DNA from: Syntrophobacterales bacterium | Lineage (GTDB): Bacteria; Desulfobacterota; Syntrophobacteria; BM002 | Length of the DNA: 26,923 bases | Assembly: GCA_030601545.1 (NCBI GenBank) | Contig: JAUVTM010000001.1 | Span: 1-26,923 of the forward strand | Direction of reading: 5' to 3' | Part shown: positions 1 to 15,530 of the stretch, piece by piece | Position numbering within the stretch: position 1 is the first letter of the stretch | Layout of the letters: each line of letters opens with the position of its first letter | Position numbers and translations under genes: made by a program | The notes under the pieces: generated by a model | Seen by the model: the letters and a program-made list of their open reading frames with translations, nothing else | The model's database searches: none | What the model was told of the DNA's origin: nothing

Positions 1-312
1 ACTATCGCTGGATACGATACAAAAACCATCAAATTTGCCCGTGTAAAGTAAATCCATTGCGTCAATTATCAATGCACTGTCAGTTGCATTTTTCCCTGAA
101 GTATACCCAAATTGCTGTATGGGCTGTATTGAATACTGTAACAGTACTTCCTTCCACCCTTTAAGGCCTGACAGCGTCCAGTCACCGTAAATCCTTTTTA
201 CATTAGCTGTCCCATACTTTGCGATTTCCGCTAGTAGCCCGTCAACAATAGAAGGTTGGGCGTTGTCTGCATCTATTAATACGGCCAATTTTTCAATTTT
301 TTCGTCTGACAT
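1..312 (-). CDS. NYN/LabA-like PIN-fold protein, N-terminal part only (runs off the window); third gene cassette; absent from the ORF track
   Basis: Manual translation from ATG at 312: MSDEKIEKLAVLIDADNAQPSIVDGLLAEIAKYGTANVKRIYGDW...GKNATDSALIIDAMDLLYTGKFDGFCIVSSDS. IDADN, RIYGDW, GKNATD and IVSSDS are NYN-domain motifs. AAGGGA lies 5 nt upstream of the ATG; the start is 17 nt past the attC R' site. Confidence 0.85.
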   Translation of the reverse strand, partial: MSDEKIEKLAVLIDADNAQPSIVDGLLAEIAKYGTANVKRIYGDWTLSGLKGWKEVLLQYSIQPIQQFGYTSGKNATDSALIIDAMDLLYTGKFDGFCIVSSDS

Positions 313-328
313 ATTTTCCCTTTCATGA

Positions 329-420
329 TTCTAACGGCCGAGCTCAGCGGCCCTGAGCGAAGCCTTGAGCTTGCCGAAAGGCTGAGTCTGAATGGGTCCG
401 ACTGCAGTGAGTGGTTATCT
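329..420 (-). mobile_element. attC site (92 bp) closing the VapBC cassette
   Basis: Minus strand: R'' AGATAAC, 5-nt spacer CACTC, L'' ACTGCAG..., variable region, L' CTGAGCT, 5-nt spacer CGGCC, R' GTTAGAA. Imperfect palindrome 24 nt downstream of the vapC stop. Confidence 0.85.
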
Positions 421-444
421 TCGCATTATGCCCATAGAGAAGAG

Positions 445-804
445 TTACTTGTAAAAGACTTCGAGTTTAGTTGCCGCTGATTTCAGCTTCTTATCCGAAG
501 TCCACAGGGGTATCCTCGACAATCGTGCCGAAGCTAGGAGATGAGCATCGACGAAACCGATTCCCATGCCCATTAATGTGTGTCGGTCGATGAAGTAGAG
601 AAGTTCATCCAGAGACACGGTTGGAGCCATCGGAAGAGATTGTAGAAGGGAGAGGAACTCAACCCTGTTCTTGATATTACCGCACGCCAGTTCACCGACT
701 ATGAAAGGATGACACCCTACCTGTGCATCCAGAAGCAACTGACTAAGATGACGGCTGCCCTGACGAAGATGGGTAACCCATATCGAGGTATCGACGATGA
801 CCAC
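445..804 (-). CDS. vapC: VapC-family PIN-domain toxin
   Basis: 119 aa, GTG start. N-terminal VIVDTSIW, central ELACG and C-terminal VDAHLLASA...LWTSDKKL acidic PIN motifs. Starts 2 nt after the antitoxin stop. Confidence 0.88.
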   Translation of the reverse strand: MVIVDTSIWVTHLRQGSRHLSQLLLDAQVGCHPFIVGELACGNIKNRVEFLSLLQSLPMAPTVSLDELLYFIDRHTLMGMGIGFVDAHLLASARLSRIPLWTSDKKLKSAATKLEVFYK

Positions 805-806
805 TG

Positions 807-1004
807 CTACGACTTCGCTGTTCTACGTCTCGGAATTGGACGGAGATCCTTTTCGGTTCCACCCAGCCTTGCAAGGCGCTTACTACTTTCGCGGGCAATC
901 AAAGATTCCAGTCCAAGTCGCACCAAGGCAGTCTTTTCTTTGATGCCAGTCAACCGCGATGCCTCTTCCAGGATTTTGTCGTCTATGTTCAGTGTAGTTC
1001 TCAT
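807..1004 (-). CDS. vapB: VapB-family antitoxin (RHH-like N terminus)
   Basis: 65 aa, MRTTLNIDDKILEEASRLTGIKEKTALVRLGLESLIARE; typical VapB start, directly upstream of the PIN toxin. Confidence 0.85.
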   Translation of the reverse strand: MRTTLNIDDKILEEASRLTGIKEKTALVRLGLESLIARESSKRLARLGGTEKDLRPIPRRRTAKS

Positions 1005-1011
1005 GTGTATG

Positions 1012-1040
1012 AGTATGCATTATTTATGCATATAAGTCAA
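1012..1040 (-). promoter_or_regulatory. sigma70-type promoter of vapBC with overlapping palindromic operator
   Basis: TTGACT (1040-1035), 17 nt, CATACT (1017-1012), 7 nt, then ATG at 1004. Perfect inverted repeat TATGCAT-N5-ATGCATA at 1014-1032. Confidence 0.65.
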
Positions 1041-1060
1041 TCGCGAATCTCTCCCTGAGA

Positions 1061-1178
1061 AGATAACGGCCGAGCTCAGCGGCCGGGCTGATCGGTGGCT
1101 GATGTTTGACCCCGCGCATTCGGCACCAAAAAACCAACGAAGCTGTTTCCCCGGTCCAACTGCAGCGAGTGGTTGGGC
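1061..1178 (-). mobile_element. attC site (118 bp) closing the HigBA cassette
   Basis: Minus strand: R'' GCCCAAC, CACTC, GCTGCAGTTGGACCGG...CCGGCCGCTGAGCT, CGGCC, R' GTTATCT. Shares an identical 20-nt arm (plus strand aacggccgagctcagcggcc) with the sites at 333-352 and 1953-1972. Confidence 0.85.
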
Positions 1179-1214
1179 AGCACTAATTATGAGACGTAGC
1201 CGTAATCCTCGGAA

Positions 1215-1556
1215 CTATGAAATATCAGGTGGAATTTGCTGCTTTGTAATATCCTTGAGAGGATAGGGTCGAATAGTCTTTAACTCACCGGCCTCAGATT
1301 TTTGGGCCTGGTACAAATCCCACCGAAGCTGGAGGTTCATCCAGAAATCTGCTGATACCCTAAAGAGTTTAGCAAGGCGTAATGCCGTACTCGGTGTCAT
1401 CCCCCGACGCCCGTTCACAATCTCGTTCACTCTTTGGTAAGGCACATGGATCGCCTTTGCTAACTCCCGTTGAGTCAAACCTAAAGGAATCAAAAACTCT
1501 TCCAAAAGCATTTCGCCGGGGTGAGTCGGTGCTCGATGCGTTGGTACACGAACCAT
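1215..1556 (-). CDS. higA: HigA-family HTH antitoxin
   Basis: MVRVPTHRAPTHPGEMLLEEFL...LTQRELAKAIHVPYQRVNEIVNGRRGMTPSTALRLAKLF...FWMNLQ. ATG at 1556 with GGAG 6 nt upstream is preferred over the TTG at 1568. Confidence 0.9.
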   Translation of the reverse strand: MVRVPTHRAPTHPGEMLLEEFLIPLGLTQRELAKAIHVPYQRVNEIVNGRRGMTPSTALRLAKLFRVSADFWMNLQLRWDLYQAQKSEAGELKTIRPYPLKDITKQQIPPDIS

Positions 1557-1587
1557 GATTAACTCCAAATTTTTCTGGCATCTGACT

Positions 1588-1881
1588 TCAGTGGTAATCT
1601 GCGATTTCCACTTCCACTGGCCCTAAATCAGTCCAAACAAAGCAGATGCGATATTGTTCATTGATACGAATACTGTGTTGTCCTTTCCGATCAGTTTTCA
1701 GTGCCTCCAATCGATTGCCCGGAGGTATTCTGAGTTCGTCCAATGAGATTACCGAGTCAAGCTGATCCAACTTGCGTACAACAATTCGCCACAAGCGTTG
1801 TGGGCACGTTTTTCTGGCAGTCTTAGTGCGCTTGCCATTGAAAATGTCTTCAGTTCCAGTGTTGCTGAACGAGCGAATCAT
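1588..1881 (-). CDS. higB: HigB (RelE/ParE-superfamily) toxin
   Basis: MIRSFSNTGTEDIFNG...RKLDQLD...LRIPPGNRLEALK.DRKGQHSIRINEQYRICF.W...VEIADYH. Toxin-first gene order. ATG at 1881 fits the promoter spacing. Confidence 0.9.
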   Translation of the reverse strand: MIRSFSNTGTEDIFNGKRTKTARKTCPQRLWRIVVRKLDQLDSVISLDELRIPPGNRLEALKTDRKGQHSIRINEQYRICFVWTDLGPVEVEIADYH

Positions 1882-1888
1882 GTGAAGC

Positions 1889-1917
1889 ACGATAGCACGG
1901 AATCCATGCTATTGCAA
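1889..1917 (-). promoter_or_regulatory. sigma70-type promoter of higBA with overlapping palindromic operator
   Basis: TTGCAA (1917-1912), 17 nt, TGc-TATCGT (extended -10, 1894-1889), 7 nt, then ATG at 1881. Inverted repeat ATAGCACGGA-a-TCCATGCTAT (9/10 match) at 1892-1912. Confidence 0.6.
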
Positions 1918-1948
1918 CCAACCAGAAATCGTAACTCAATCACGTGCT

Positions 1949-1975
1949 GCCCAACGGCCGAGCTCAGCGGCCCTG
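1949..1975 (-). mobile_element. Half attC (L'-R' arm only) at the head of the cassette array
   Basis: CAGGGCCGCTGAGCTCGGCCGTTGGGC matches the right arm of the other two attC sites. No partner R''/L'' arm (AAC-CACTC-(A/G)CTGCAG) is present upstream. Confidence 0.75.
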
Positions 1976-2038
1976 CCTGTCCCGCCTGTCCCGAGCGCAG
2001 TCTCGGGAAGCGCAGTCGCGGGGAGCTTGTCGCGGGGC
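1971..2038. repeat. Three-level nested palindromic repeat (two 24-nt units inserted one inside the other)
   Basis: ccctg[cctgtcccg[cctgtcccgagcgcagtctcggga]agcgcagtcgcgggg]agcttgtcgcggggc. The inner unit has a perfect TCCCGAG/CTCGGGA stem. Confidence 0.75.
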
Positions 2039-2066
2039 TGCTTCCTGTTCACTTTTCACTGTTTAC
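2039..2066. repeat. Degenerate heptamer tandem repeat over the exonuclease stop codon
   Basis: tgcttcc tgttcac ttttcac tgtttac. Confidence 0.55.
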
Positions 2067-2834
2067 CAGATCGAATGGCAACATGCGGCCCGCTGCAAAC
2101 TCCAACTCCTGCTGCAGCCGCTCCCAGGCGATCTCCATGATGGTCTTGAGGTTGACCACGTCAGCTTCATTGTACTTAAGTAGTCTGGGAAGGGCTTCGG
2201 GACTGCCACGGAGATGCTCGTGCCAGAGCACAACCGCCTCGTAGCCGCTCATCTCCTGGATCTCCGAGTCGCGAAAGATTCCAAAAAGAGGCTCGATTCG
2301 TTTGAGGCCGCCGCGGTAGCCCAGCCGCCGTGCCACATGCAGCAGATCGATGTGGGCCTGACGGAACTGGAGGTTGGGGAAAAACCCGGCGATGAAGGGG
2401 AGGTCAAATCTACAGCCATTAAAGGTAATGAGCAAATCATAACCCTCTACGGCATCCTCGAACTCCTCCAGGCTTTCCCCGTTGACGAAGTGGTGCATCT
2501 GGAGGCCGTCATAGAGACCGATGACGGTAATTTCGTGGTCGTAACTGCTTATACCCGTGGTCTCGATGTCCAGAAAACCGCAGCGGTTTCGGAAGTCCCG
2601 ATAGAGCCGCCAGCGCTCGGCAGAGGGGAGGCGGTTGTAAAAGTAACCGGCTTGCCCGCGGTGCTCAATGGACTCGTGGAGCTGCCTGGTTATGCGTCGC
2701 CGTTGCTCAGTATTTTTTGGCCAATCCTTGAGGTGAAGCTCCAGGTCATCCCAGGTGAGAATTCCCCGGCGCCAGAGATCGATCTCGGTTCGAGGGCCGA
2801 TGTGGGGGAGGTGTAGGAAAGTATGTTCAATCAT
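2049..2834 (-). CDS. YprB-like RNase H-fold (DEDD-type) exonuclease with N-terminal HhH-like segment
   Basis: 261 aa. FLDIETTG, LITFNGCRFDLPF, HIDL and LLKYNEADV nuclease motifs; N-terminal HLPHIGPRTEIDLW. Confidence 0.8.
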   Translation of the reverse strand: MIEHTFLHLPHIGPRTEIDLWRRGILTWDDLELHLKDWPKNTEQRRRITRQLHESIEHRGQAGYFYNRLPSAERWRLYRDFRNRCGFLDIETTGISSYDHEITVIGLYDGLQMHHFVNGESLEEFEDAVEGYDLLITFNGCRFDLPFIAGFFPNLQFRQAHIDLLHVARRLGYRGGLKRIEPLFGIFRDSEIQEMSGYEAVVLWHEHLRGSPEALPRLLKYNEADVVNLKTIMEIAWERLQQELEFAAGRMLPFDLVNSEK

Positions 2835-2892
2835 GATGGGTAAGCCGTGAGAGGTAAGCAGTACACTAAACGTTAAGTCAGCAAATCATAAG

Positions 2893-2919
2893 ATCGCGGC
2901 TGGAAAGCCGCTCCCACAG
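2893..2919. repeat. Single GTRG-type REP-like palindrome
   Basis: Minus strand CT-GTGG-GA-GCGGCT-TTCC-AGCCGC-GAT: tetranucleotide foot plus 6-bp stem. Confidence 0.65.
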
Positions 2920-2946
2920 GGGGATCTCATGGCTGCCCTCTGTTTT

Positions 2947-3004
2947 CTGGCTGCCGGCTGCAAGCTGCCAGCTGAGTCAGACGTCTCCGCGTCCCCGCTT
3001 CGCC
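2947..3004. repeat. Heptamer array followed by octamer array downstream of the radical SAM stop
   Basis: ctggctg ccggctg caagctg ccagctg (2947-2974); acgtctcc gcgtcccc gcttcgcc (2981-3004). Confidence 0.55.
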
Positions 3005-3023
3005 GTGCCGTTCCACCTGCGTT

Positions 3024-4760
3024 CTAACAAACCCCACATATCTTGCACTCAGTCGGCTCACAGGGTGAGGTAGTCTGGCCGGCCAGGGCCTGCTCATATT
3101 CATGCCAGAGATAATCTTTCTTGATGCCGTGATCCATGAAGTCCCAGGGGAAAAGCTCTTCTCGCTCCCGTTCGCGAGAAACATAGAATTCCGGGTTAAC
3201 ATTGACCGTCTTGAAGGATTTGCTCCAGTTGCCGTTTTCTTGTGCCACTGTTGCCAGCAAGGGTGCCAACCGTCGGTCGCCACGGGCCAGCAGCGCCTGG
3301 ATGTAAGCCCAGCGGGGGACATCGGCATGCACCCGCACGTTGGCCACCGCACCCAGGCCTCGTCTGAGTTTCTTTATTCGTCGCTTGAGTATGGAAAGAT
3401 CGGAGAACGGAACCCACTGAAAGGGTGTGAACGGTTTGGGTACAAAGGAACTGACGCTCAGGGTGACAGTGCCCAGCCGCTTCTGCCCTCGACCGATAAC
3501 CAGCTGCTCATGCTTGACCCGTTTGACCAGCTGTATTATTGCCTCTATATCCTCTTCTGTTTCGGTGGGCAGACCGATCATGAAATAGAGCCTCAGATTG
3601 GGAATACCTGAGCCGAGCACGGCCGTGACAGCATTGAGGATTTGCTCTTCGGTCAAGTTCTTGTTAATTACCTGCCGCAAACGCTCGCTCCCAGCCTCAG
3701 GGGCGATGGCCACGGTTCGAAGACCACTTTCCCGAAGTGCCTCCAGCATGGCAGGGGTGACAGAGTCGGCTCGCAGTGAGGATACCGATAAGCGTGTCCC
3801 TGCTTGCCTCAGCTGCAAACAGATGGCGTCGATATCGGGATGGTCCGACACAGCCGAGCTCAGCAGGCCGATTTTTCTTCCTGAGGGGGCGCTATCCAGG
3901 GCCGCTTGCACCACCTTCTCACCCTGTTGATACCGAACAGGCCGATAGACAAAGCCGGCAGCACAGAAGCGGCAGCCCCGGCCACAGCCCCGGCCGATCT
4001 CCACCAAGACAGTGTTAGGGAATTCGGTATGAGGGGTGACGACTGTTGAGACCGTTGGTCCTTCGGTCTCTATGGCAGCAACTCTAACCGGAATCTTAGC
4101 AGGGATGTCGGTAAGGGGTTCAAAAGAGATAAGTTGACCTTCAGTGTCATTTTCCGCCCTGAACAAGGCAGGCACATAAGCTCCTGATACCCGCTTGGCA
4201 ATATGGACCAGCTGCTCTTCCCTGGAAGCATTCTCATCTTGCGCTTCTTGCCAAGCGGTAGTGAACTCCTCCAGGAGATTTTCCGCCTCACCCAGAAGGA
4301 AGACATCAATGAAGGGAGCGATAGGCTCAGGGTTAAGGAAGGTGGCGATACCTCCCGCCACCACCAGGGGCTCGTGCTGGTGACGGCGGGAGCTGTAGGG
4401 GCTCAATTTGCCAAGTTGCAGGAGGTGAACGAGATTTGCATAATCATTTTCAAAAGCTACTGAAAAGGCGACGATTCGGAAATCCGCCAGCGGCCTTTGG
4501 CTCTCCACTGAAAGCGGGCCGGTTCCCGAACGTGCCGCAGTCATGTCCTTGGATTCCGGCAGAAAAACCCTCTCGCAAACCACGGTGGGCAGCTGGTTCA
4601 GGCGATGGTAGACGGTCTGGAAGCCCAGGTTGGACATTCCCAGAAAGTACCGGTTGGGGTAGACCAGGGCAATGGGAATCTTCCCACCCCAATCCTTGAT
4701 GATTGTGCCGGTCTCGTCCGCCAGCCACTTTTTTAATCTGCGTTGCAGTTGCCAAGACAT
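3024..4760 (-). CDS. Radical SAM protein with N-terminal B12-binding-like domain; function unknown
   Basis: CxxxCxxC motif in EIGRGCGRGCRFC; IALVYPN.Y..GMSNLGFQ; TVAIAPEAGSERLR.VINK; LYFMIGLPTET. Likely start is ATG 4760 (MSWQLQRR) rather than 4838. Confidence 0.85.
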   Translation of the reverse strand: MSWQLQRRLKKWLADETGTIIKDWGGKIPIALVYPNRYFLGMSNLGFQTVYHRLNQLPTVVCERVFLPESKDMTAARSGTGPLSVESQRPLADFRIVAFSVAFENDYANLVHLLQLGKLSPYSSRRHQHEPLVVAGGIATFLNPEPIAPFIDVFLLGEAENLLEEFTTAWQEAQDENASREEQLVHIAKRVSGAYVPALFRAENDTEGQLISFEPLTDIPAKIPVRVAAIETEGPTVSTVVTPHTEFPNTVLVEIGRGCGRGCRFCAAGFVYRPVRYQQGEKVVQAALDSAPSGRKIGLLSSAVSDHPDIDAICLQLRQAGTRLSVSSLRADSVTPAMLEALRESGLRTVAIAPEAGSERLRQVINKNLTEEQILNAVTAVLGSGIPNLRLYFMIGLPTETEEDIEAIIQLVKRVKHEQLVIGRGQKRLGTVTLSVSSFVPKPFTPFQWVPFSDLSILKRRIKKLRRGLGAVANVRVHADVPRWAYIQALLARGDRRLAPLLATVAQENGNWSKSFKTVNVNPEFYVSREREREELFPWDFMDHGIKKDYLWHEYEQALAGQTTSPCEPTECKICGVC

Positions 4761-4980
4761 TGGTAACCCGTGGAAGCTCTTGCCGGAAAAAGGTCTTCGA
4801 TATCCTACTGCCCTCAAAAACACCCCAGAAGATAGCACTGGTACATGGCGTCAGGGCTGCAAATGTACACCGTTCAATTATGCCACAGAGACCGCGCCGC
4901 GTCCTCACCTTTTCACCACCTCTAGAAACAATCTTTGACCGCCGCAAGCGACGGCCGGTATCGGCCGAAATAATCCCGCC

Positions 4981-6138
4981 TCAGTCGGCCTGCCGTCGGA
5001 GAAAGGTTGGGATTTCCAGCTCGTCCTCGTCTATGGGAAGATCTTTGTAACTCATGGGGCGGCTGTGTTCAGTCGCGTTATCCTCAATCTTCCTGTTACG
5101 GCGCAAGAAGGTGGGAATTTCCAGGTCATCGTCACGGCGAGACCCTTGGATAACTCCCAAGTCGGGTTTGGGTCTGACGTCGACTTCACCGATTCCGGTG
5201 GCGATAACGGTAACCCTCAATTCGTCACCAGCACTCTGATCCAGCACCGTGCCCCAGATAATATTGGCATCTTCGTGGGCCTCTTTCTGGATCAGTGATG
5301 ATGCCTCTTGAACCTCGTCGATGGTGAGGTCCAGTCCGCTGCTGATGTTCATGAGCACACCCTTGGCACCACTTATGGACACATCCTCCAACAGAGGACT
5401 GGAAATGGCTTTCTGAGCCGCCTCAGTGGCCCGATCTTCACCACTAGACATGCCGGTGCCCATCAAAGCCATACCCATCTCACTCATGATTGTCCTGACA
5501 TCGGCAAAATCTAGATTGATCAAGCCCGGGACGGTGATGAGATCGGAGATGCCCTTCACGGCATAGAGCAGCACGTCGTCCGCCTTTTTGAGCATTTCCA
5601 GGAAAGTCGCCTTTTTGGCCGCCAGGCTCAAAAGACGGTTGTTGGGAATGGTAATGATGGTATCCACCGTCTCCTGGAGCTCTTTGATACCTTTGTCGGC
5701 CGTCTGCATGCGCTGACGTCCTTCAAAGTTGAATGGTTTGGTCACCACAGCCACGGTGAGCGCTCCGATTTCCTTGGCGATCTGAGCAACTACCGGTGCA
5801 CCACCAGTCCCGGTGCCTCCGCCCAGTCCGGCAGTCACGAAGACCATGTCAGCGCCATCCAAGGCCTGACGAATCCTGTCAGCGTCCTCCAGAGCGGCAC
5901 TGCGGCCGATCTCTGGGTTGGCCCCGGCTCCAAGCCCCTTGGTAATGTTGGCTCCCAGTTGGAGTTTGGTGTGAGCCTTGGAAACTTCCAGGGCCTGGGC
6001 GTCGGTGTTAGCGGCGATGAAATCAACTCCCATCAGACTGGCGTTGATCATATTGTTGATAGCGTTGCCGCCACCACCACCTATGCCAATCACTTTGATC
6101 TTGGCTCCGTTGTCACTTTCAACAAACTCGAACATCAT
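4981..6138 (-). CDS. ftsZ: Cell division protein FtsZ
   Basis: [20 protein letters not shown] tubulin signature, NLDFADV; GGAGG RBS. Confidence 0.99.
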
Positions 6139-6324: not shown

Positions 6325-6380
6325 AATTCAGGAATTCCTCAATCCTCCAATTCCTCAATTCCCCAATTCCTCAATTCCTT
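6325..6380. repeat. Octamer tandem repeat (7 units) overlapping the ftsA stop
   Basis: aattcagg aattcctc aatcctcc aattcctc aattcccc aattcctc aattcctt. Confidence 0.85.
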
Positions 6381-7605
6381 ACACTATGTCACTAAACCAT
6401 TTCCGCATCCGATCGACCAAGCGGTTGAAAATGTTGTTTTGACGGATGCGGAACAATTTTCTGGGTGCGGCGTTGGCACCGTAAAGGACCAACCCCACTC
6501 CAGTGGCGTACATGGGGTTTTTGACCACATCTGCCAGGCCACCGATGTCAGTGGGTAGGCCAGTGCGAACAGGCAGGTTGAAGACCTGCTCGGCCAACTC
6601 CGCAAGCCCCGGTAGCAAAGAGGAACCCCCGGTAATTACCAGACCGGAAGCCACAAGGTCCGAATAGCCGGATCGAAGTAATTCCCGTTGCAGCAACGAA
6701 CAGATTTCCTCCACTCGTGGCTCCAAAATCTCACCCAATATGTTTCTGCTGAGCACCTTTGCCTTGCCACCTCCAACACTCGGCACCTGGATAGTCTCGT
6801 CCTTTTGAATCATGGCAGTGAGAGCACAGCCGTAGCGCAGTTTGATTTTTTCTGCCTCTTCCACTGGGGTTCTCAATCCCACGGCAATGTCGTTGGTAAG
6901 ATTATTGCCACCCAGGGAGAGAACCGAGCTATGTCGTATGCTGTGTTCTGAAAAGATGGCCAGATCCGAAGTGCCTCCACCAAAATCCACCAGGGCCACG
7001 CCCAACCTACGCTCTTGGGGGTTCAGTACCGCTTCTGCTGAGGCGAGGGACTCCAAAACAATGTCACAGACGTCAAGGCCGGCACGTTGGCAGCATTTGA
7101 CGATATTCTGGGCTGAGGTAACAGCACCGGTGACGATGTGAACCTTGGCCTCCAAGCGCACGCCTGACATGCCCAGAGGGTTTTGAATACCGCCCTGGTC
7201 GTCGATCAAATATTCTTGCGGCAGAATATGAATAACTTCTCGATCAAAGGGTATTGCCACTGCTTTGGCAGCATCGATTACCCGGTCAATGTCTTGCTGG
7301 CTTACTTCACGGGTCTTCACGGCGATTACACCATGGCTGTTGACGCCCTCGATATGTCCACCGGCAATACCGACGTAAACCGCATTGATTTCACAGCCCG
7401 CCATTAACTCGGCCTCTTCCACTGCTCGTTTAATTGAATTCACCGTGCTTTCAATGTTGACCACTACACCCTTGCGCAAGCCGTCAGAAGGATGGGTGCC
7501 AATTCCCACAATATCTATTCCTTCAGGGGTAGCCTCACCAACCACGGCACAAATTTTGGTGGTGCCAACGTCAAGTCCCACAATCAATGAATCCTTTTTG
7601 GCCAT
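6379..7605 (-). CDS. ftsA: Cell division protein FtsA
   Basis: IVGLDVGTTKI, GMSGVRLEAKVHIVTG, VDFGGGTSD, ITGGSS actin-fold motifs. Confidence 0.99.
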   Translation of the reverse strand: MAKKDSLIVGLDVGTTKICAVVGEATPEGIDIVGIGTHPSDGLRKGVVVNIESTVNSIKRAVEEAELMAGCEINAVYVGIAGGHIEGVNSHGVIAVKTREVSQQDIDRVIDAAKAVAIPFDREVIHILPQEYLIDDQGGIQNPLGMSGVRLEAKVHIVTGAVTSAQNIVKCCQRAGLDVCDIVLESLASAEAVLNPQERRLGVALVDFGGGTSDLAIFSEHSIRHSSVLSLGGNNLTNDIAVGLRTPVEEAEKIKLRYGCALTAMIQKDETIQVPSVGGGKAKVLSRNILGEILEPRVEEICSLLQRELLRSGYSDLVASGLVITGGSSLLPGLAELAEQVFNLPVRTGLPTDIGGLADVVKNPMYATGVGLVLYGANAAPRKLFRIRQNNIFNRLVDRMRKWFSDIV

Positions 7606-7607
7606 GT

Positions 7608-8504
7608 TTAAACCCCCTTTTGTTGAGATCGGTTTTGCTTGGGAATCTTGAAACGTCCTCTGACAAAGACCCGATTTCCGTGGCTGAGATCAATCCCCCT
7701 TAACTGGGTCTGAAGTCCTTTTTTCTCCAGATAGCGCAACACCTTTTCAAGCTTGGCTATCCTGATGCCATAGTCTTCGCTGCCGAGGTCGACCTGAATT
7801 CCACCTCGGGCGGTAAAAAAGCTGAGCCCTGCATTCCTGTTCCACCTGATCTCAGAGATGAGTCGCCAGGGTAATTTCAACTGAGTCTCTCGATAGAGAT
7901 TCTCAAGGAGAACGGTAAACTCTCGAGGCAGGTTGCAGCCGGAGCCGAGGGTTCCAGGGTCAAGTCCTGTAATAATAGGCAAACCGGCATATTCGCTCGG
8001 CGCGGCCTGGGCGAAACAAGTGCCCTGCTGGTCTACCAGGTAGAACTGATGCCCCTTGACCAGGGCCACCGGCTTACGTTCCTCAATCTCTATACGAATC
8101 CGATCTGGGATCTCGCGGCTAACAGCGGCGGCCGCTATCCAGGGATGTTGTGTGAGCCTATTTCTTACCTCGTCTAGATCCAGGGAAAGAATGTTGACCC
8201 CAGATGGGATCTCGGCTTGTTGAATGACAGCTTGAGGGTCCAGCTGCTGACAGCCATTCACCTGGATCCGGGTGACCTGCAGTAGCGGTGAAGTGAGTAG
8301 AGCACGGTAGCCAACAAGGCACAGAGCACTCAAGGCAACAAAAACAAGAAGGACAAGAAATATTTTAGCAACCAGGCGCAATCGTCGGTACAACTGCAGA
8401 CGTTTGTTCCGGTAGCTATTCTTCTTGCTCTTTACCTTTATGGCTTCAAATGGCAGCGAAATTTGCATACGGCCCCGACAATCAGGTGTTATGGTTATTG
8501 CCAA
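7608..8504 (-). CDS. ftsQ: Cell division protein FtsQ/DivIB
   Basis: Basic N terminus, one TM segment, POTRA-like region (IQVNGC...HPWI..A.VSREIPDRIRIEIEERKP), C-terminal IDL. Lies between murB and ftsA; start uncertain (possibly 8468). Confidence 0.92.
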   Translation of the reverse strand: MAITITPDCRGRMQISLPFEAIKVKSKKNSYRNKRLQLYRRLRLVAKIFLVLLVFVALSALCLVGYRALLTSPLLQVTRIQVNGCQQLDPQAVIQQAEIPSGVNILSLDLDEVRNRLTQHPWIAAAAVSREIPDRIRIEIEERKPVALVKGHQFYLVDQQGTCFAQAAPSEYAGLPIITGLDPGTLGSGCNLPREFTVLLENLYRETQLKLPWRLISEIRWNRNAGLSFFTARGGIQVDLGSEDYGIRIAKLEKVLRYLEKKGLQTQLRGIDLSHGNRVFVRGRFKIPKQNRSQQKGV

Positions 8505-9402
8505 CGACTTCGATTTCCAGTTCTAGTTGGACGCCAAATTCTTGCGCCACCTTTTCCTGGGCGAGTTGAATGAGAGCCAGGATATCGCTGGCCCGTGCCT
8601 GGCCCCGGTTTACGATGAAATTGGCGTGCTTTGTAGAAATTTGGGCATCGCCAACGCGTATACCTTTTAAACCTGCGGCCTCAATAAGCCGACCGGCAAA
8701 GTCCCCTGGGGGATTCTTGAACACCGAGCCAGCTGAGGGAAGGCGCCATGGCTGTTTCTCCTTTCGAGTATTAAGCAAGGCGCGAATCTTGTCTCGAATG
8801 TGCTCTCGAGAGCTTGGGGTAAGTGAGAACTCAGCTTCAAGAACCACAGAGTTTGGCGGCAGTTCTAGGCTGCGGTACGAAAAGCGGAGTTGGGATCCGG
8901 ATAGCCTGCTCAGGGCGCCGTCAGCAAGAAGAAGGAGCACCGCTTCACAAACATCAGCCATTTCTCCGGCGTGAGTACTAGCATTCATTCGCAGAGCACC
9001 CCCCACCGAGCCGGGTATGCCGGCAATAAACTCGAGGCCGCTGAGAGCTTCTTTCAGGCAGAAGCGAAGAAGCCTGTTGAGACGCATTCCCGCACCTACT
9101 TTCACTCTTCCCGCGGAATCCATGTGCTCTATTTGAGAAAAGCCGTTCTCCAGGTTGATAGCCGCAGCCCGGCTGCCACCATCCCGCACCAGAAGATTGG
9201 TTCCACGCCCAAGAATGAAGTAGGGATGATGATTTTTGTTCAGCACCTGGACGGCGGTTTGCAGCCCTGCCAGATTAAGAGGACGGAGGAGGCAGGACAC
9301 CGGCCCCCCCACGCGCAGCGAGGTGTGTCCTGTCAGCATCACATTCCAGTCGACTTCAACTCCGTCCAGGTGCTGAAGCTGTTTTTTCAATTTAGGATCC
9401 AT
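8482..9402 (-). CDS. murB: UDP-N-acetylenolpyruvoylglucosamine reductase
   Basis: HTSLRVGG, LGRGTNLLVRD, GLEFIAGIPGSVGG, PSAGSVFKNP, HANFIVN, LELEIEVVG. The ORF extends to 9429, but those extra codons are heptamer repeat. Confidence 0.97.
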   Translation of the reverse strand: MDPKLKKQLQHLDGVEVDWNVMLTGHTSLRVGGPVSCLLRPLNLAGLQTAVQVLNKNHHPYFILGRGTNLLVRDGGSRAAAINLENGFSQIEHMDSAGRVKVGAGMRLNRLLRFCLKEALSGLEFIAGIPGSVGGALRMNASTHAGEMADVCEAVLLLLADGALSRLSGSQLRFSYRSLELPPNSVVLEAEFSLTPSSREHIRDKIRALLNTRKEKQPWRLPSAGSVFKNPPGDFAGRLIEAAGLKGIRVGDAQISTKHANFIVNRGQARASDILALIQLAQEKVAQEFGVQLELEIEVVGNNHNT

Positions 9403-9433
9403 TATCATTTCACATTTATCATTAGTCATTTGC
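9400..9433. repeat. Heptamer tandem repeat over the murB start
   Basis: cattat catttca catttat cattagt catttgc. Confidence 0.6.
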
Positions 9434-9450
9434 TGTCTAGTGGCCAGTCA

Positions 9451-9535
9451 TCGTAGGGCGGGTCTCCGGACCCGCCAGAAACGTATCTCAAGCTACGTTA
9501 TCCTCTTTCGGCCGGTACGGAGACCGGCCCTACGA
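9451..9535. repeat. Inverted pair of GTAG-type REP palindromes (REPIN/BIME-like)
   Basis: tc-GTAG-GGCGGGTC-tccg-GACCCGCC (9451-9476) and, on the opposite strand, tc-GTAG-GGCCGGT-ctccgt-ACCGGCC (9510-9535). Confidence 0.8.
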
Positions 9536-9570
9536 ATGAAGGAGAAGCGTAATGACCTAAGCATTTTTCT

Positions 9571-9605
9571 CGTTCACCCTTGACCGTTTACCTGTTATCG
9601 GTTCC
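9571..9605. repeat. Heptamer tandem repeat over the murC stop
   Basis: cgttcac ccttgac cgtttac ctgttat cggttcc. Confidence 0.55.
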
Positions 9606-10980
9606 TTTCCTTTAATCGTTTGAGCAACTCCTCGCCTGTTTGCCAAATGTTACCTGCTCCAAGGGTCAACACAACATCTCCCTCCCGCACTTCCTCCACG
9701 AGAGACGGCACCAGGGCCAGGTGATCTGGGATGTACCTGACATTGCCATGTCCATGTTCTCGAATGGCAGTTGTCAGCTTTTCTGCATGCACTCCTGGAA
9801 TAACCGGTTCACTGGCAGCATAAATCTCGGTGACAATGAGAACGTCCGATTGATAAAAGGCAGTGGTGAAATCCTCGAACAGGGCTTTTGTGCGGGTGTA
9901 GCGGTGAGGCTGGAAAAGCACAAAGCGGCGCCGCCCCGGAAATGATAAGGCCATTGTTTTCAGCACTGCCTTTATCTCGGTGGGATGATGGCCGTAGTCA
10001 TCGATTACGGTAACGCCATTGACGTCACCTTTGATTTCAAAACGGCGCTGCACCCCGGTCATTTCCTGTAGACCGCGGCAAATAGCGGAGAAGGGAATTT
10101 CCAGTTCGTGGCCGACCGCCACAGCCGCCAGGGAATTCAGGGCATTGTGCCGCCCTGGGATGGGCAAATTGACCTTTCCCAATTCCTGACCGCGATAGAA
10201 AGCGCGGTAGGAAACATTCAGTCCATCAAAGGCAAGGTCACGGGCTTGGAAATCAGCCTGCGCTGAGAAACCATAGGTGACCAGCCGCTTCTTGATCCGA
10301 GGCAAGAGGGACTGAATATTTTCATCCTCGAGACAAAGGATATTGAGTCCATAAAATGGGACCTGGTTGATGAATTCGAGAAAAGTCTCTTTGATCGCAT
10401 CCAGGTCTTTATAGAAATCGAGATGTTCAGTGTCGATGTTTGTTACCAGCGAGATGGTGGGAGAATACAGAAGAAAGGTGCCGTCGCTTTCATCCGCTTC
10501 CGCCACCACAAAGTCGCCCTGGCCAAGCTTGGCATTGGTTCCCCAGGCATTCAGACGACCACCAATGATCACGGTGGGATCTAGACCGCCCTCTGCCATC
10601 ACCGTACCCACCATGGAGGTAGTGGTCGTCTTGCCGTGAGCTCCTGCAATCAAAATGGCGTACTTGAGTCGCATGAGCTCGGCCAGCATCTCGGCCCGAC
10701 GAATAACTGGTATGTGGTAGTCCATGTTGGCCGCAGCCACCTCAGGGTTGTCAGAATCAATGGCAGAGGAAACCACCACAGCGTCAGCACCGGCTACCTG
10801 CTGGGGCTGATGGCTGTAGGAGATCGTTGCCCCTAATGTTTCAAGCCGACGGGTAATTTCGCTCTCCTGGATATCGGAGCCACTGACCTGGTGGCCGAGG
10901 TTGAGAAGCAGTTCAGCAATACCGCTCATACCGATGCCACCGATGCCAACGAAGTGAATATGATAAGAACGTTTGTACAT
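9595..10980 (-). CDS. murC: UDP-N-acetylmuramate--L-alanine ligase
   Basis: HFVGIGGIGMSGIA, GAHGKTTTT, EADESDG, DDYGHHPTEI, FQPHRYTRT. Confidence 0.99.
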   Translation of the reverse strand: MYKRSYHIHFVGIGGIGMSGIAELLLNLGHQVSGSDIQESEITRRLETLGATISYSHQPQQVAGADAVVVSSAIDSDNPEVAAANMDYHIPVIRRAEMLAELMRLKYAILIAGAHGKTTTTSMVGTVMAEGGLDPTVIIGGRLNAWGTNAKLGQGDFVVAEADESDGTFLLYSPTISLVTNIDTEHLDFYKDLDAIKETFLEFINQVPFYGLNILCLEDENIQSLLPRIKKRLVTYGFSAQADFQARDLAFDGLNVSYRAFYRGQELGKVNLPIPGRHNALNSLAAVAVGHELEIPFSAICRGLQEMTGVQRRFEIKGDVNGVTVIDDYGHHPTEIKAVLKTMALSFPGRRRFVLFQPHRYTRTKALFEDFTTAFYQSDVLIVTEIYAASEPVIPGVHAEKLTTAIREHGHGNVRYIPDHLALVPSLVEEVREGDVVLTLGAGNIWQTGEELLKRLKERNR

Positions 10981-11054
10981 TTTTCAGTTTAGCCAGCTAA
11001 GAAAGTCATCATAAAATCTATTCTTGACAGTGTTTTTTCAAAGTTTTAGACAAT

Positions 11055-12251
11055 TTAGGCATTTCTTTTGCTCCGCCTCCCTCTGGTCTGCGGATTCAGC
11101 CAGTTCCCCGTGTACCAGCCCCGGGACTGCTCCTTGGCGTAGCTACTTATATTCATGAGAATTCCCATGGCTGCCAGGTTGGTGAGCAGAGAACTGCCGC
11201 CGTAGCTTATGAAGGGTAGCGGCAGTCCTTTGGTGGGCAGCAGCCCCATGACCACCGCACTGTTAATGAGTGCTTGGAGCCCGATTACCAGAGTCAGGCC
11301 GAAAGCCAGGTAGGTGCCGTAGCGGTCGGGTGCTCGCAGGGCGATTTGCACCCCCTTGTAGATCAACAGACCGTAGAGGAGGAGGACAATGGCAATGCCC
11401 ACCATCCCGGTTTCTTCGCCAATTACCGCCAGAATAAAGTCCGTATGTGGTTCTGGCAGATAGAAAAGCTTTTGCTGGCCGGAACCCAGACCAACTCCTA
11501 ACGGACCACCTGAGCCGAGAGCCAGTAATGAGTGAAGGAGCTGGAAACTGGTATCGCTTGGATCTCGCCACGGGTTGACAAAAGCCAATAGCCTTTCCAA
11601 GCGGTAACTTGACTGGGCTATGGCCAAAGCCAGAAGGGGAATGAGGGCCAGGCCTGTGGCCAATAGAAAGCGCAAACGTACGCCGGCGACGAAGAGCAAG
11701 AGAAAAACCAGGGCCGCAAAGGTTACTGCAGTTCCCAAATCAGGTTGCATAAGCACCAGGCCAATAAAGACTGCTGAAACCAGAAGGTGTGGTACATACC
11801 CCACACTGAACTCTTGGATCCGGTCCTTCTTTTTGGCCAGGGAGTAGGAAATGTAGATGATGAGTGTCAATTTGGCAAATTCTGCAGGTTGCACAGAGAG
11901 AGGGCCCAGCCGCAACCAACGCCTGGCACCCCCAACCCGATGGCCCACCTGGGGCAAGAGCACAATAAGAAGACTCAACAGGCTCACCCCAAGGATCACA
12001 TAGACAAGACGGCGATACACAACATAGGGCAAATTCTTGCTTACGATCAGGACGGCAACCCCAATCAAGGAAAAAAGGATCTGCCTCTTGACAAAGTACA
12101 TGCTGTCACCAAAACGCTGCTGGGCAATGATGGAACTCGAACTGTAAAGCATCACAAGTCCAATACCCATCAGAGCAAAAGTAACGAACAGGAGGACTAG
12201 ATCGTAGCTGTTCTTATGTTCCCTTAAATGAGCCATCGTGCTATTTACCAT
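11055..12251 (-). CDS. ftsW: SEDS peptidoglycan glycosyltransferase FtsW
   Basis: Multi-TM. GARRWL..G...QPAEFAK, QPDLGT, YLPEPHTDFI, GLPLPFISYGGSS. Start may be 12236. Confidence 0.97.
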   Translation of the reverse strand: MVNSTMAHLREHKNSYDLVLLFVTFALMGIGLVMLYSSSSIIAQQRFGDSMYFVKRQILFSLIGVAVLIVSKNLPYVVYRRLVYVILGVSLLSLLIVLLPQVGHRVGGARRWLRLGPLSVQPAEFAKLTLIIYISYSLAKKKDRIQEFSVGYVPHLLVSAVFIGLVLMQPDLGTAVTFAALVFLLLFVAGVRLRFLLATGLALIPLLALAIAQSSYRLERLLAFVNPWRDPSDTSFQLLHSLLALGSGGPLGVGLGSGQQKLFYLPEPHTDFILAVIGEETGMVGIAIVLLLYGLLIYKGVQIALRAPDRYGTYLAFGLTLVIGLQALINSAVVMGLLPTKGLPLPFISYGGSSLLTNLAAMGILMNISSYAKEQSRGWYTGNWLNPQTRGRRSKRNA

Positions 12252-12300
12252 TTCGCATAACGCATAGCGAGAAATACAGGGAATCTTGACATTGACAGTT

Positions 12301-12335
12301 TTACGCTTTGCGCTCTGCCCTTAGCGCTTTGCTGC
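12301..12335. repeat. Heptamer tandem repeat just downstream of murD
   Basis: ttacgct ttgcgct ctgccct tagcgct ttgctgc; a loosely complementary cgcataa cgcatag lies at 12254-12267. Confidence 0.5.
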
Positions 12336-12342
12336 TTCGCCT

Positions 12343-13770
12343 TCAATTGTGGGCGTTGAGCTTTCTTTTGCTCCTGCCCGCAGAGGTCCAGGGACAACTA
12401 GTCTTTTCATCAACCACTTCCATAGCGGTGCATTTATGGACCAGAGAACGAAAGTGGTCGCCCCTGGCCTTATAGTTCTCATAGTGGTCAAAACTCGAAC
12501 ATGCGGGAGAGAGCAAGACCACGTCGCCTGGCGCAGCAGCGCCCAGGGCTACCGGGACCGCAGCTTCCATGTCGTCCACCACCACCGTGCAAGTGAGATT
12601 ACCCAAAGCCTTGGCCAATCGAAATCGAGCTTCTCCCATAAGCACGAGCATTTTTACGCGTTGGCGAACCAAACCAGTAAGAGGATCGTAGGAGCCTTCT
12701 TTGTCGCGCCCCCCAGCAAGGAGAATAATGGGCGCAGTGAAGGTTTCAAGGGATCGGACCACTGAATCCACATTGGTGGCTTTGGAGTCATTATAGAAGC
12801 GGATGCCGCGCCAGTGATGAGCCAGTTCCAGGCGGTGCGGCAGCGGTTTGAAATTGTCGATAGTCTTCTGAATGGCCTCAGGTTCGGCCCCCATGTTGGT
12901 GGCAGCAAGTACCGCAGCCATAAGATTCTGCTGGTTATGATTGCCCACGAGTTGCCAGCGACGCAGGTCATAGCGACGCACCGGGCCAGGCATTACCCGA
13001 CAGACCAGCTGCTCTGAATCCAGATAGGCGTGGGCTGATTGCTTGGACAGGCTAAAGTTGAGTTGGCGACTGCGGATGGTACAACGCACCCCGATCAGGG
13101 GGTCACGGGCGGGGACCACCGCAATATCGTCCACTGTTTGATTGGAAAAGAGTCGGCATTTGCTTTCCACATAGTCAGAAAAAGAACCATAACGATCTAG
13201 GTGATCTTCGCTGATGTTCAGGAGCACTGCAACCTGGGGGTGAAAGGTATCCATGGAATCAAGCTGGAAGCTGCTCACTTCAACCACTGCTATTTCAAAA
13301 TCTTCTTTTGCTCGAAGTAGATTGACGAGAGGATTGCCGATGTTGCCTCCCACGAAGACGCGCTGGCCGCTGTGGTTGATCATGTCACCCACCAGTGCTG
13401 TCGTGGTGGTTTTGCCATTGGTGCCACTTATGGCTACAATAGGAAGCTTGAGAAAGCGACTCGCCAGTTCCAGTTCACCGACAATCGGAACGGACTTGCT
13501 TTTGGCCTCTTGCAACTGCGGTAAGTTCAGAGGAACACCAGGACTGACAACGATGAGATCCGCATCGGTGAATAGTTCCGCGGGATGGCCTCCCAACGCC
13601 AATAAGCATTCCAGCCCCCGGGCAGAGTCCGCCTCAGAGCCCAAGTCTTCAGCTGGGAGATGGTCGGTAATGGTAACGCGAGCTCCTTGGTTCAGAAGGA
13701 ACTCGGCAACGGCCAGACCCGTGCGAGCCAGCCCGACAACCAGTACGTTTTTATCTTTGAGGTCTTTCAT
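12343..13770 (-). CDS. murD: UDP-N-acetylmuramoyl-L-alanine--D-glutamate ligase
   Basis: VVGLARTG, GTNGKTTTT, VGGNIG, VEVSSFQL, NDSKATN, LLSPACSSFD. Confidence 0.99.
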   Translation of the reverse strand: MKDLKDKNVLVVGLARTGLAVAEFLLNQGARVTITDHLPAEDLGSEADSARGLECLLALGGHPAELFTDADLIVVSPGVPLNLPQLQEAKSKSVPIVGELELASRFLKLPIVAISGTNGKTTTTALVGDMINHSGQRVFVGGNIGNPLVNLLRAKEDFEIAVVEVSSFQLDSMDTFHPQVAVLLNISEDHLDRYGSFSDYVESKCRLFSNQTVDDIAVVPARDPLIGVRCTIRSRQLNFSLSKQSAHAYLDSEQLVCRVMPGPVRRYDLRRWQLVGNHNQQNLMAAVLAATNMGAEPEAIQKTIDNFKPLPHRLELAHHWRGIRFYNDSKATNVDSVVRSLETFTAPIILLAGGRDKEGSYDPLTGLVRQRVKMLVLMGEARFRLAKALGNLTCTVVVDDMEAAVPVALGAAAPGDVVLLSPACSSFDHYENYKARGDHFRSLVHKCTAMEVVDEKTSCPWTSAGRSKRKLNAHN

Positions 13771-13810
13771 GAGTGCTCTTCTAGTTTGTTTCCATCCGGA
13801 AACTCCTCCA

Positions 13811-13890
13811 TGTCATTCTGAGCGAAGCGAAGAATCTCTGCGGATCCAGCAACTATGAGATTCTTCGTCGCCTTGCTCCTCAGAATGACA
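13811..13890. repeat. 80-bp REP-like palindromic element at the position where mraY normally lies
   Basis: TGTCATTCTGAG..CGAAGAATCTC ... GAGATTCTTCG..CTCAGAATGACA, with 12-bp and 11-bp complementary arms. Confidence 0.8.
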
Positions 13891-13933
13891 CCCATAAACG
13901 CGGTTTCCAGTTGGTCACCAGTTAGCAAAAATC

Positions 13934-13970
13934 TTAGACATTTTAGGCACTTTAGCTCACTTCAGACATT
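13934..13970. repeat. 9-10-mer tandem repeat over the murF stop
   Basis: ttagacatt ttaggcact ttagctcact tcagacatt. Confidence 0.6.
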
Positions 13971-15395
13971 TACCTTTTGTTTCTCAAACTCAGATAGAAG
14001 AATCTCAACTACCTTTTCCATCCGCATGCCCCGCGAACCCTTCACCAGCAACCAGTCACCGGCAGCCAGCAAGCTGCTGACCTGCGTTGCCATTTCCTGG
14101 TGATCACTGGCCTGGGTCATACGGTCGCTACTCATTCCAGCCTCAGCAGCACCGGCGAGCAGATGAGAGGCTTGTTCACCCATGGCCAAAAGGTGATCAA
14201 CCCCTTCCCTGGCCACGATGACGCCCACCTGCCGGTGAAGGGCCGAGCTATCCTCTCCCAACTCCAGCATGTCGCCCAGAACGGCGAAAGTTTTGCCTTG
14301 CTTCTTAACGTGTATCAATGTTTCCAAAGCGGCGGCCATGGAACCGGGATTGGCATTGTAACTGTCATTTATTATGTGGATGTCGCCAGGAAGAGTGAGT
14401 ATTTCCATTCGTTTGTCAACAGGACGAAACTCTGCCAGGGCAGCGGCAATGGTGCTTGATTGAAGATTCAAAGCCCAGGCAACAGCCGCGGCTGCTACCG
14501 CATTATTGATGTGGTGGCGGCCAAGCACCGGCAGGTGAATCTCAAGGGTTTCCTCCTCCAGTTTCAGGAGAAAACGGCTGCCATCAAGGTCCATAGAGAC
14601 GACCCGCTCCAAGGTTATGTCGGCAGAACCGCCTGCCGTTGAGAATCTCACCTGACGGCCAGCGAAAGGGGAGGCCACATCCATGACCCTGGGATCATCC
14701 AGATTGACCACTATGGTTGCGGTCTCTTCCATACCAGCGAAAAGCTCCCCTTTGGCGGCCTGAATCCCCGCCAGACTTCCCAACCCCTCCAGATGGGCCG
14801 GCTGGATATTGGTAATCATTCCCACCTCTGGGCGGGTTATTTCGGTCAAGCGCCCGATTTCTCCTGGTTGATTCATTCCCAGCTCTATCACCGCTGCCTG
14901 ATGGCTGCTGTTTAGTTGCAACAAGGTGAGTGGCACACCCACCAGGTTGTTGAAGGTTCCATGATTCTTGAGAACCTTCCAAGATCGGCTAAAGATAGCC
15001 GCAACCATCTCTTTGGTGGTGGTCTTACCATTGGAGCCAGTAATCGCCACCAGCGGGATGGGATAGCGCCGGCGCCAGAACTCAGCCAGGTCCCCGAAAG
15101 CACGGAGAGTATCAGGAACACCCACTACAGGGATCTGCAAGTCCTGAAGACCACTCGTTTCTTGCTCCTCCAAGGCCACAACCACACCAGCGGCACCACG
15201 GCTTACGGCCTGCTCGAGAAACTGATGACCGTCAAATTGTTCCCCCTTCAGGGCTACAAACAGGTCACCTCGATCCAGGATGCGACTGTCGGTGGAGATT
15301 TCGCTGAAACTTTGCTCTTCACCCTGCACCAGAAGCTGACCTCCGGTGGCCTCTAGCACTGCCGCTAAAGTCCATTTGTTTTGCTCATCAGTCAT
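13962..15395 (-). CDS. murF: UDP-N-acetylmuramoyl-tripeptide--D-alanyl-D-alanine ligase
   Basis: ISTDSR, ITGSNGKTTTKE, GTFNNLVGVPLT, IELGMNQPGEI, INDSYNANP, LGDMLELG, LVKGSRG. Confidence 0.99.
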   Translation of the reverse strand: MTDEQNKWTLAAVLEATGGQLLVQGEEQSFSEISTDSRILDRGDLFVALKGEQFDGHQFLEQAVSRGAAGVVVALEEQETSGLQDLQIPVVGVPDTLRAFGDLAEFWRRRYPIPLVAITGSNGKTTTKEMVAAIFSRSWKVLKNHGTFNNLVGVPLTLLQLNSSHQAAVIELGMNQPGEIGRLTEITRPEVGMITNIQPAHLEGLGSLAGIQAAKGELFAGMEETATIVVNLDDPRVMDVASPFAGRQVRFSTAGGSADITLERVVSMDLDGSRFLLKLEEETLEIHLPVLGRHHINNAVAAAAVAWALNLQSSTIAAALAEFRPVDKRMEILTLPGDIHIINDSYNANPGSMAAALETLIHVKKQGKTFAVLGDMLELGEDSSALHRQVGVIVAREGVDHLLAMGEQASHLLAGAAEAGMSSDRMTQASDHQEMATQVSSLLAAGDWLLVKGSRGMRMEKVVEILLSEFEKQKVNV

Positions 15396-15404
15396 TTTTC
15401 ATCT

Positions 15405-15497
15405 CACATTTCTCATTTCTCATATTAATGAGATGCCTTCATGATTCTTCCCACTCAATGGGCAATGATAATTGCGCAATGAGAGATGAGAAATGTG
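15405..15497. repeat. 93-bp element bounded by 19-bp inverted repeats built from heptamers
   Basis: cacatttctcatttctcat (15405-15423) and atgagagatgagaaatgtg (15479-15497) are 18/19 complementary. Confidence 0.75.
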
Positions 15498-15530
15498 CCC
15501 GCTGCCTACTGCCCGCTGCCTGCTGCTTCC
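15496..15530. repeat. Heptamer tandem repeat over the murE stop
   Basis: tgcccgc tgcctac tgcccgc tgcctgc tgcttcc; encodes the MurE tail EAAGSGQ and the TAG stop. Confidence 0.7.

Follow-up and report, generated by a model that had tools for sequence, protein, structure and literature searches.

An integron cassette array with a probable deletion scar at its head, downstream of the dcw cluster in a marine-sediment Syntrophobacterales genome

In this study, we showed that a stretch of 26,923 nt (hereafter the window), which is the entire contig C253 (JAUVTM010000001.1) of a Syntrophobacterales metagenome-assembled genome (MAG, GCA_030601545.1; 2.13 Mb, 344 contigs, 80.7% complete), carries at one end a true array of integron gene cassettes, which is of the classical IntI/attC type. 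On the assembled sequence the array is, with a probability of roughly 0.8, a cluster of attC sites lacking integron-integrase (CALIN; Cury et al. 2016, PMC4889954) with a deletion-scarred head. Judged from its sequence, this head is the scar of a deletion and not a natural array start. The public runs containing the window sequence are cold-seep and marine-sediment metagenomes, and the relatives retrieved with the protein of the exonuclease gene next to the array are MAGs labelled Syntrophobacterales, Desulfobacterota or Deltaproteobacteria.

Exact copies of the 20-mer AACGGCCGAGCTCAGCGGCC were found at 333-352, 1065-1084 and 1953-1972 on the plus strand, and no such triple was expected by chance (100 shuffles). 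The cassette borders were set with the crossover G|TT on the minus strand, which delimits a HigBA cassette of 888 nt (1954..1067) encoding HigB and a HigA-type helix-turn-helix (HTH) protein, a VapBC cassette of 732 nt (1066..335) encoding VapB and a VapC-PIN protein, and a NYN cassette which begins at 334 and is cut by the contig end (334..1), all on the minus strand. The three identical 20-nt arms of the original prediction, bounding an 888-bp HigBA cassette, a 732-bp VapBC cassette and a NYN start, were thus reproduced both as exact copies and in size. The proposed search of the genome for the 20-mer yielded no copies beyond these three, and neither an attC arm (with up to 5 mismatches) nor a match to the covariance model R1 described below was found in the MAG outside the window contig. 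Two kilobases from the array, inside the radical SAM gene, a stretch at 3849-3868 resembles the attC R' arm at 16 of 20 positions; it is one of only two genome-wide matches at four mismatches, stands at the same position in the relatives G014, G010, G001 and G018, and is probably a coincidence.

Both internal junctions have the same layout on the coding strand, namely a 7-mer ending in AAC, the arm CACTCRCTGCAGTYGGACC, a variable loop, the arm GGCCGCTGAGCTCGGCC and GTT. For scoring, 46 attC sites of relatives were aligned with the window sequence left out (alignment A1), the fold was drawn by hand, and the covariance model R1 was built from this alignment of relatives only. The complete attC of the VapBC cassette (329..420, minus strand, 92 nt) scored 70.9 bits (E 1.2e-18), with the R'' box AGATAAC at 420-414, an exact reverse complement of the cassette start GTTATCT, and the crossover G|TT at 335|334. 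That of the HigBA cassette (1061..1178, minus strand, 118 nt) scored 73.8 bits (E 1.7e-19), its R'' box GCCCAAC at 1178-1172 being the exact reverse complement of the cassette start GTTGGGC, and its crossover lying at 1067|1066. With R1, both full sites therefore pass the covariance-model scoring on which the attC assignment had been made to depend (E about 1e-19), and apart from them and the head junction neither the window nor the MAG had an R1 match. Of the core consensus (R'' RYYYAAC, R' GTTRRRY), each full site has the AAC and GTT triplets, which are at least 93% conserved over the 46 sites of relatives.

The initial 7-mer of each site complements the start of its own cassette and not that of the next one. 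This match was found for two of two cassettes in the window and in full for 15 of 29 consecutive site pairs across the arrays, versus 3 of 48 at the control junction, and it is the trace left when a circular cassette is inserted at G|TT. In the hand-drawn fold, an AAC/GTT R box is followed by a spacer that stays unpaired and by an L box, whose '' arm bears three single-base bulges; the inner stem is variable and covaries. In the 46-site alignment 83% of the cells pair in this fold, as against 27-40% with slid partners; nine pairs have changed on both sides, and the covariation score exceeds that of all 500 shuffles. The loop varies in length, which gives sites of 54-124 nt in the relatives. 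In the published description (PMC5027507), attC sites carry extrahelical bases close to L'', leave a central spacer unpaired and have a terminal structure that varies, and the drawn fold agrees with this layout.

Sites of this family occur in 16 of 17 genomes of the genus (14 of 17 by the arm pattern alone). IntI was found in four of them (G003, G011, G013 and G014), scoring 476-487 bits on TIGR02249, and these four IntI contigs also bear attCs of the window family in the classical divergent arrangement. The IntI of G014 aligns over its full length with VchIntIA (PDB 2A3V; E 1.8e-97), including the segment specific to integron integrases. Since the site family stands next to canonical IntI, the sites belong to a canonical integron system. 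In the MAG of the window itself, no IntI was detected on any of the 344 contigs, the best TIGR02249 matches being Xer-like at 90 bits versus a cut-off of 265; no recombinase occurs on the head side in the remaining 24.9 kb of the contig; and the only 76 nt between the head repeat and the exonuclease gene hold no recombinase gene and no attI-like sequence. The absence of a tyrosine recombinase and attI at the head, stated in the original prediction, is hence borne out, and looking for intI elsewhere in the genome, as had been suggested, gave nothing above 90 bits.

The head junction is a 5'-truncated attC at 1949..2035 (minus strand; limits good to about 10 nt on the upstream side), in which the R' box, the L' arm and the variable loop with two GGGACAGGC units are kept and the R''-L'' arm is gone. 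On this junction (1949-2007) R1 gave 13.3 bits (E 0.09). The '' arm motif occurs only twice in the window and is absent upstream of the third 20-mer. Three attC junctions had been claimed; two of them are complete, and the third has the R'-L' arm and most of the loop and no R''-L'' arm. Over its roughly 85 nt (1949-2035), it can be aligned with the last (3') two-thirds of intact attCs from G009:C4, G003:C89, G016:C308 and the Joint Genome Institute (JGI) metagenome contig L101, and the attCs of the first three are of a subtype with one to three GGGACAGGC units in the loop. This half attC is fused about 15 nt past the stop codon of the exonuclease gene. In L101, a 96%-identical HigBA cassette is found in the middle of an array, after a RelB/YafQ and a tautomerase cassette, and there the site before HigBA is intact (98 nt, 74.8 bits, ending in GTTGGG). 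L100, the NCBI contig JAIVUK010000013.1 from a sister assembly, shows the same succession at its start, from the exonuclease 3' end through the half attC to HigBA, repeat copy number being the sole difference. Independent Logan contigs match 287-1461 without one difference; no exact match to the exonuclease/half-attC junction, and none to the HigBA cassette start, was found in JGI metagenome contigs.

Two other readings were tried and rejected. As an attI, the head junction shares nothing with the conserved intI-proximal …TAATCTAAG|GTTAG… of G011, G013 and G014 and matches attC loops instead. Nor is the exonuclease gene a cassette with a degenerate attC: in 15 of 17 congeners it is conserved, in single copy, next to the radical SAM gene, and the GTGAAC at its stop is part of heptamer repeats which are present with or without a following attC. 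The number of 9-nt GGGACAGGC units in the attC loop ranges from one to three among strains (window 1975-1995; L100 75-103; L097 1699-1822), in keeping with the tandem repeats of 7-9 nt that many gene junctions of the genome contain, including the heptamers at the exonuclease stop.

The deletion would have run from just past the exonuclease stop into the attC preceding HigBA, removing its R''-L'' arm and everything upstream of it. In relatives, this upstream stretch holds a sigma-54-type promoter element, small open reading frames (ORFs) or an ATPase gene, and intI with attI in two species. The half site left behind is predicted to be unable to form the hairpin recombined by IntI, so HigBA would no longer be excisable through its upstream site. 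The two attCs downstream of it have kept their structure intact and might still serve an IntI acting in trans.

The position of the array is shared across the genus. Orthologues of the exonuclease (71-95% amino acid identity) were found in 15 of 17 same-genus genomes, and when the exonuclease 3' locus was compared in relatives, as had been proposed, co-oriented attCs lay 0.6-3.7 kb downstream of the gene in nine congeners; cassettes of the genus are usually found in this interval. The order in G014 is exonuclease, sigma-54-type promoter element, ORF113, attC, ORF169, convergent intI, candidate attI and array, and that in G011 is exonuclease, ATPase_2 gene, ORF152, convergent intI, candidate attI and array. 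In G016 and G013, an HSP20 gene is found about 1.3 kb past the exonuclease gene, one attC lying between the two; in L100 it is on the far side of the array. HSP20 therefore marks the other (right) flank of the locus.

Integrase-less forms of the locus differ in their junctions. G010 is a single-contig chromosome without IntI, in which exonuclease, ATPase and ORF151 are followed directly by a VapBC cassette whose first ~15 nt are replaced by unrelated sequence. This cassette is 94.3% identical to that of the window (96.8% at the nucleotide level for the vapB-vapC pair), and the backbone genes are 93.6-93.9% identical; by sequence comparison, the VapBC cassette appears to be vertically inherited, and the breakpoints of the window and G010 are different. 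In G002, which has no intI at the locus, the stretch found 125 nt past the exonuclease stop is the one lying 181-423 nt upstream of intI in G003. The three different junctions (window/L100, G010 and G002) are consistent with repeated loss of the platform.

In G014 (L061 6068-8093, G014:C218), a cassette-like ORF and a full attC (65 bits) stand behind the convergent intI in the orientation of the main array, and in G003 (C89, C222) the stretch 3' of intI has 90% protein identity to ORF169 of G014. It is conceivable, although we consider it improbable, that the intI-attI of the genus sits inside a co-oriented run of attCs with cassettes on both sides, so that attC × attC recombination could excise intI. 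If this were true, integrase loss would be a built-in, recurrent outcome of such excision, which could explain why attC is kept in 16 of 17 congeners and IntI in only 4, and the window would be a survivor of intI excision, later scarred by deletion and still diversifying by homologous recombination in its toxin-antitoxin cassettes.

Several observations weigh against a CALIN with a deletion-scarred head and have to be set beside the alternatives they favour. Concerning the sites themselves, the R' 7-mers fit GTTRRRY fully at one of three junctions (GTTGGGC), GTTATCT and GTTAGAA being GTT plus part of the consensus; single-sequence minimum free energy (MFE) folding of the three junctions on both strands did not give the R/L hairpin, with unremarkable z-scores; and RNAalifold on the 46 sites gave no consensus and did not recover the hairpin unaided. 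Together with an Rfam scan of 1-3200 (E up to 10), which returned two chance-level matches only and no attC family, the unremarkable single-site folds would suit repeats of another class, such as REP-like elements or junction repeats associated with toxin-antitoxin genes. Such an origin is nearly negligible in our estimate, because the attC-type fold is backed by covariation, the cassettes carry the permutation signature of R'' and own cassette start, and the physical linkage of the site family to canonical IntI in four congeners had already disfavoured it. Concerning the head, none of the Logan contigs listed spans 1987-1997, which lies in the 9-nt tandem repeat. The MAG is a short-read assembly and the repeat at 1975-1995 breaks the Logan unitigs, and an assembly chimera could have joined the exonuclease contig to an unrelated cassette contig via repeats. 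We regard a chimera as very improbable, since the independent NCBI assembly carries the same fusion with only repeat-number differences, and Logan contigs cover 1997-2423 (X1 record 7) and 1831-1987 (X3 record 21). Only slightly more credit is given to secondary-site insertion, in which an integrase with its gene elsewhere would have placed the cassettes at a non-att site of a locus which never held a platform. It is listed among the origins of CALINs by Cury et al. 2016 (PMC4889954), but it would leave a bare G|TT junction, not ~85 nt of a preceding cassette's attC, and the same interval holds attCs in nine congeners and IntI in two.

The remaining question is whether the array is orphan at all. 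The CALIN definition asks for at least two attCs and no intI within 4 kb on each side; the window has two full sites and one half site, 24.9 kb are clear on the head side, and the contig ends 329 nt past the last site. That the array leaves the contig so soon, in a MAG which is 80.7% complete and split into 344 contigs, also weighs against the orphan status. So does the fact that the deleted segment need not have contained intI, because G014 and probably G003 keep cassettes between the exonuclease gene and a convergent intI. An intI-attI might accordingly follow later in the array, past the point where the contig stops, or belong to a contig that was left unassembled or unbinned. This possibility is the most substantial of the alternatives, although we judge it to be the less probable state of affairs. 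Besides the incompleteness of the MAG, it draws on G014, where intI stands behind an exonuclease-proximal attC and ORF169, on G003, whose intI contig starts with ORF169-like sequence and whose exonuclease contig ends in four attCs, on the two attCs of the window scoring as high as those in IntI-linked arrays, and on the different array contents of co-occurring strains. Against it, no IntI-like frame is present on the 344 contigs; the single-contig genomes G001, G010 and G012 have attCs and no IntI; and the breakpoint of the strain difference lies inside higA and not at an attC. L100, with an identical head, reaches the flank after about 4.2 kb of cassettes without an integrase. In L100 the head is followed by HigBA, RHH/PemK, a Fic pair, DUF188/S4 and an acetyltransferase, parted by attCs of 28-67 bits, and then by tightly packed non-cassette genes (Rce1-like, acyltransferase, GNAT, asparaginase, HSP20 and Lon), and over the length read it conforms to the CALIN rule on either side. 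The orphan array proposed in the original prediction is accordingly supported on what is assembled, the left edge being the contig end.

The comparison with L100 also revealed how the array differs between strains. Over its first 449 nt, the HigBA cassette has 100% identity between the window and L100; from mid-higA on, the identity is about 83% (L100 196-862 versus window 1215-1954). This switch of identity in the middle of higA indicates that the downstream cassettes were exchanged by homologous recombination inside higA and not site-specifically at an attC, and the strain differences downstream of HigBA are at least partly attributable to this process. Both variants co-occur in runs X1 and X3, as a joint from 1082 to 1155 bearing the L100 site's 15-nt loop shows. 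In four runs, which come from four studies, the Logan contig depth over the NYN region (1-300) was about 10 times that of the toxin-antitoxin cassettes next to it, which means that the sequence is multi-copy or shared by many community members, and this probably caused the assembly break.

Every ORF of the array region has Pfam support. The NYN-domain gene of the third cassette (1-312; PF01936, E 2.9e-23) is represented by its 5' part, the first 104 codons, and runs off the contig end. It is preceded by vapC/PIN (445-804; PF01850, E 1.1e-7), vapB (807-1004; PF09957, E 2e-17), a higA-type HTH antitoxin gene with an uncertain start codon (1215-1568; PF01381, E 6.8e-12) and higB (1588-1881/1890; PF05015, E 1.3e-14). 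The 97-amino-acid HigB (ATG form) is encoded as an identical protein in the sister assembly, and the 100-amino-acid form (GTG start) had no record by exact look-up. The conserved left flank of the cassette locus is the RNase_H_2-superfamily exonuclease gene (2049-2834; PF13482, E 4.9e-35), followed at higher coordinates by the radical SAM gene (3024-4838) and ftsZ (4981-6138), the end of the dcw cluster, both assigned by NCBIfam/Pfam. NCBIfam and Pfam identified mraZ, rsmH, ftsI, murE, murF, murD, ftsW, murC, murB, ftsQ, ftsA and ftsZ. The exonuclease, radical SAM, dcw and cassette genes are all on the minus strand, and the array is co-oriented with mraZ...ftsZ, as had been noticed beforehand. 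The array had also been placed directly downstream of the dcw operon. It does follow the cluster in the same orientation; after ftsZ, two conserved genes, the radical SAM and exonuclease genes, intervene. The order of the dcw cluster (6379-21107) is mraZ-rsmH-ftsL-ftsI-murE-murF-murD-ftsW-murC-murB-ftsQ-ftsA-ftsZ, with mraY, murG and ddl missing from it; an mraY fragment is found at the start of contig C307, and a murG-like domain within a 1220-codon open frame on contig C136.

Both toxin-antitoxin cassettes appear, from sequence motifs, to carry their own promoters. That of the VapBC cassette is a sigma-70-like match to the consensus, TTGACT-17-CATACT, over a palindrome at 1012..1040 (minus strand), and was the only promoter-like match of a scan in 1-5200. 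The 5' leader of the HigBA cassette (1891..1948, minus strand) contains a possible promoter/operator, TTGCAA-17-TATCGT, around a near-palindrome, which was read by eye and is below the scan threshold; this part is identical in the window and L100 and has one change in L101, while the crossover-proximal part varies in L101. Own promoters are typical of toxin-antitoxin cassettes in chromosomal integrons and stabilise arrays (Richard et al. 2024, PMC13108822), and by analogy the toxin-antitoxin cassettes of the window would probably stabilise its array. The gap between the exonuclease gene and higB contains only a hairpin without a T-run, and the sigma-54-type element of the relatives is deleted in the window; read-through from the exonuclease and upstream genes into the cassettes is plausible. 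In the relatives, a sigma-54-type motif TGGGACGAATTTTGCAT (GG-N10-GC spacing) with a conserved leader of about 120 nt is directed away from the exonuclease side, into the first ORF or the cassettes. Motifs of this type were located in L061 at ~5900-6070 (G014), L064 at ~2960-3100 on the minus strand (G003:C89), L068, L070, L065 at ~4380-4440 (G003:C222) and L069 at ~2930-2990 (G002), and a related one lies between intI and the first cassette in G003. Such motifs may represent a sigma-54-dependent cassette promoter.

CALINs, toxin-antitoxin cassettes, genus-anchored chromosomal integrons and lineage-specific intI loss are all already described, and the current understanding of integrons is unchanged by this case. 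Its added value is modest and lies in a deletion junction resolved together with an intact precursor, and in homologous recombination as a driver of array turnover. The case documents the origin of integrase-less arrays in uncultured marine-sediment Desulfobacterota, with a conserved-gene anchor and three lineages with different head junctions, and illustrates the continued change of such arrays through ordinary homologous recombination inside their cassettes.

Like the CALINs of Cury et al. 2016 (PMC4889954), 95% of which have no intI pseudogene nearby and among whose proposed origins is intI loss, the window has at least two co-oriented attCs, no nearby intI or intI pseudogene, and cassettes unrelated to antibiotic resistance. 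It differs from typical CALINs in that one of its ends is the contig end, so the 4-kb intI rule was checked on one side only, and from most of them in that its head, where a core gene is fused to a truncated attC, points more clearly to a deletion mechanism. With the superintegron of Vibrio cholerae (Richard et al. 2024, PMC13108822) it shares homogeneous attC arms, toxin-antitoxin cassettes with own promoters (apparent ones in the window) and a fixed genus-wide location, whereas it has few cassettes in view, no integrase, and a Desulfobacterota (Syntrophobacterales) host from marine sediment or cold seep. The Xanthomonas integron downstream of ilvD, with its repeated lineage-specific intI loss (Colombi et al., bioRxiv 10.1101/2025.06.18.660453), is similar in that the platform stands beside a housekeeping gene genus-wide, intI is intact in a minority and lost or inactivated elsewhere, and the arrays are stable. 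Unlike in Xanthomonas, the window's platform is anchored at the exonuclease gene that follows the dcw cluster, the loss appears in the form of clean deletions with differing breakpoints (window/L100, G010 and G002) and not of intI pseudogenes, and some congeners also have cassettes behind intI.

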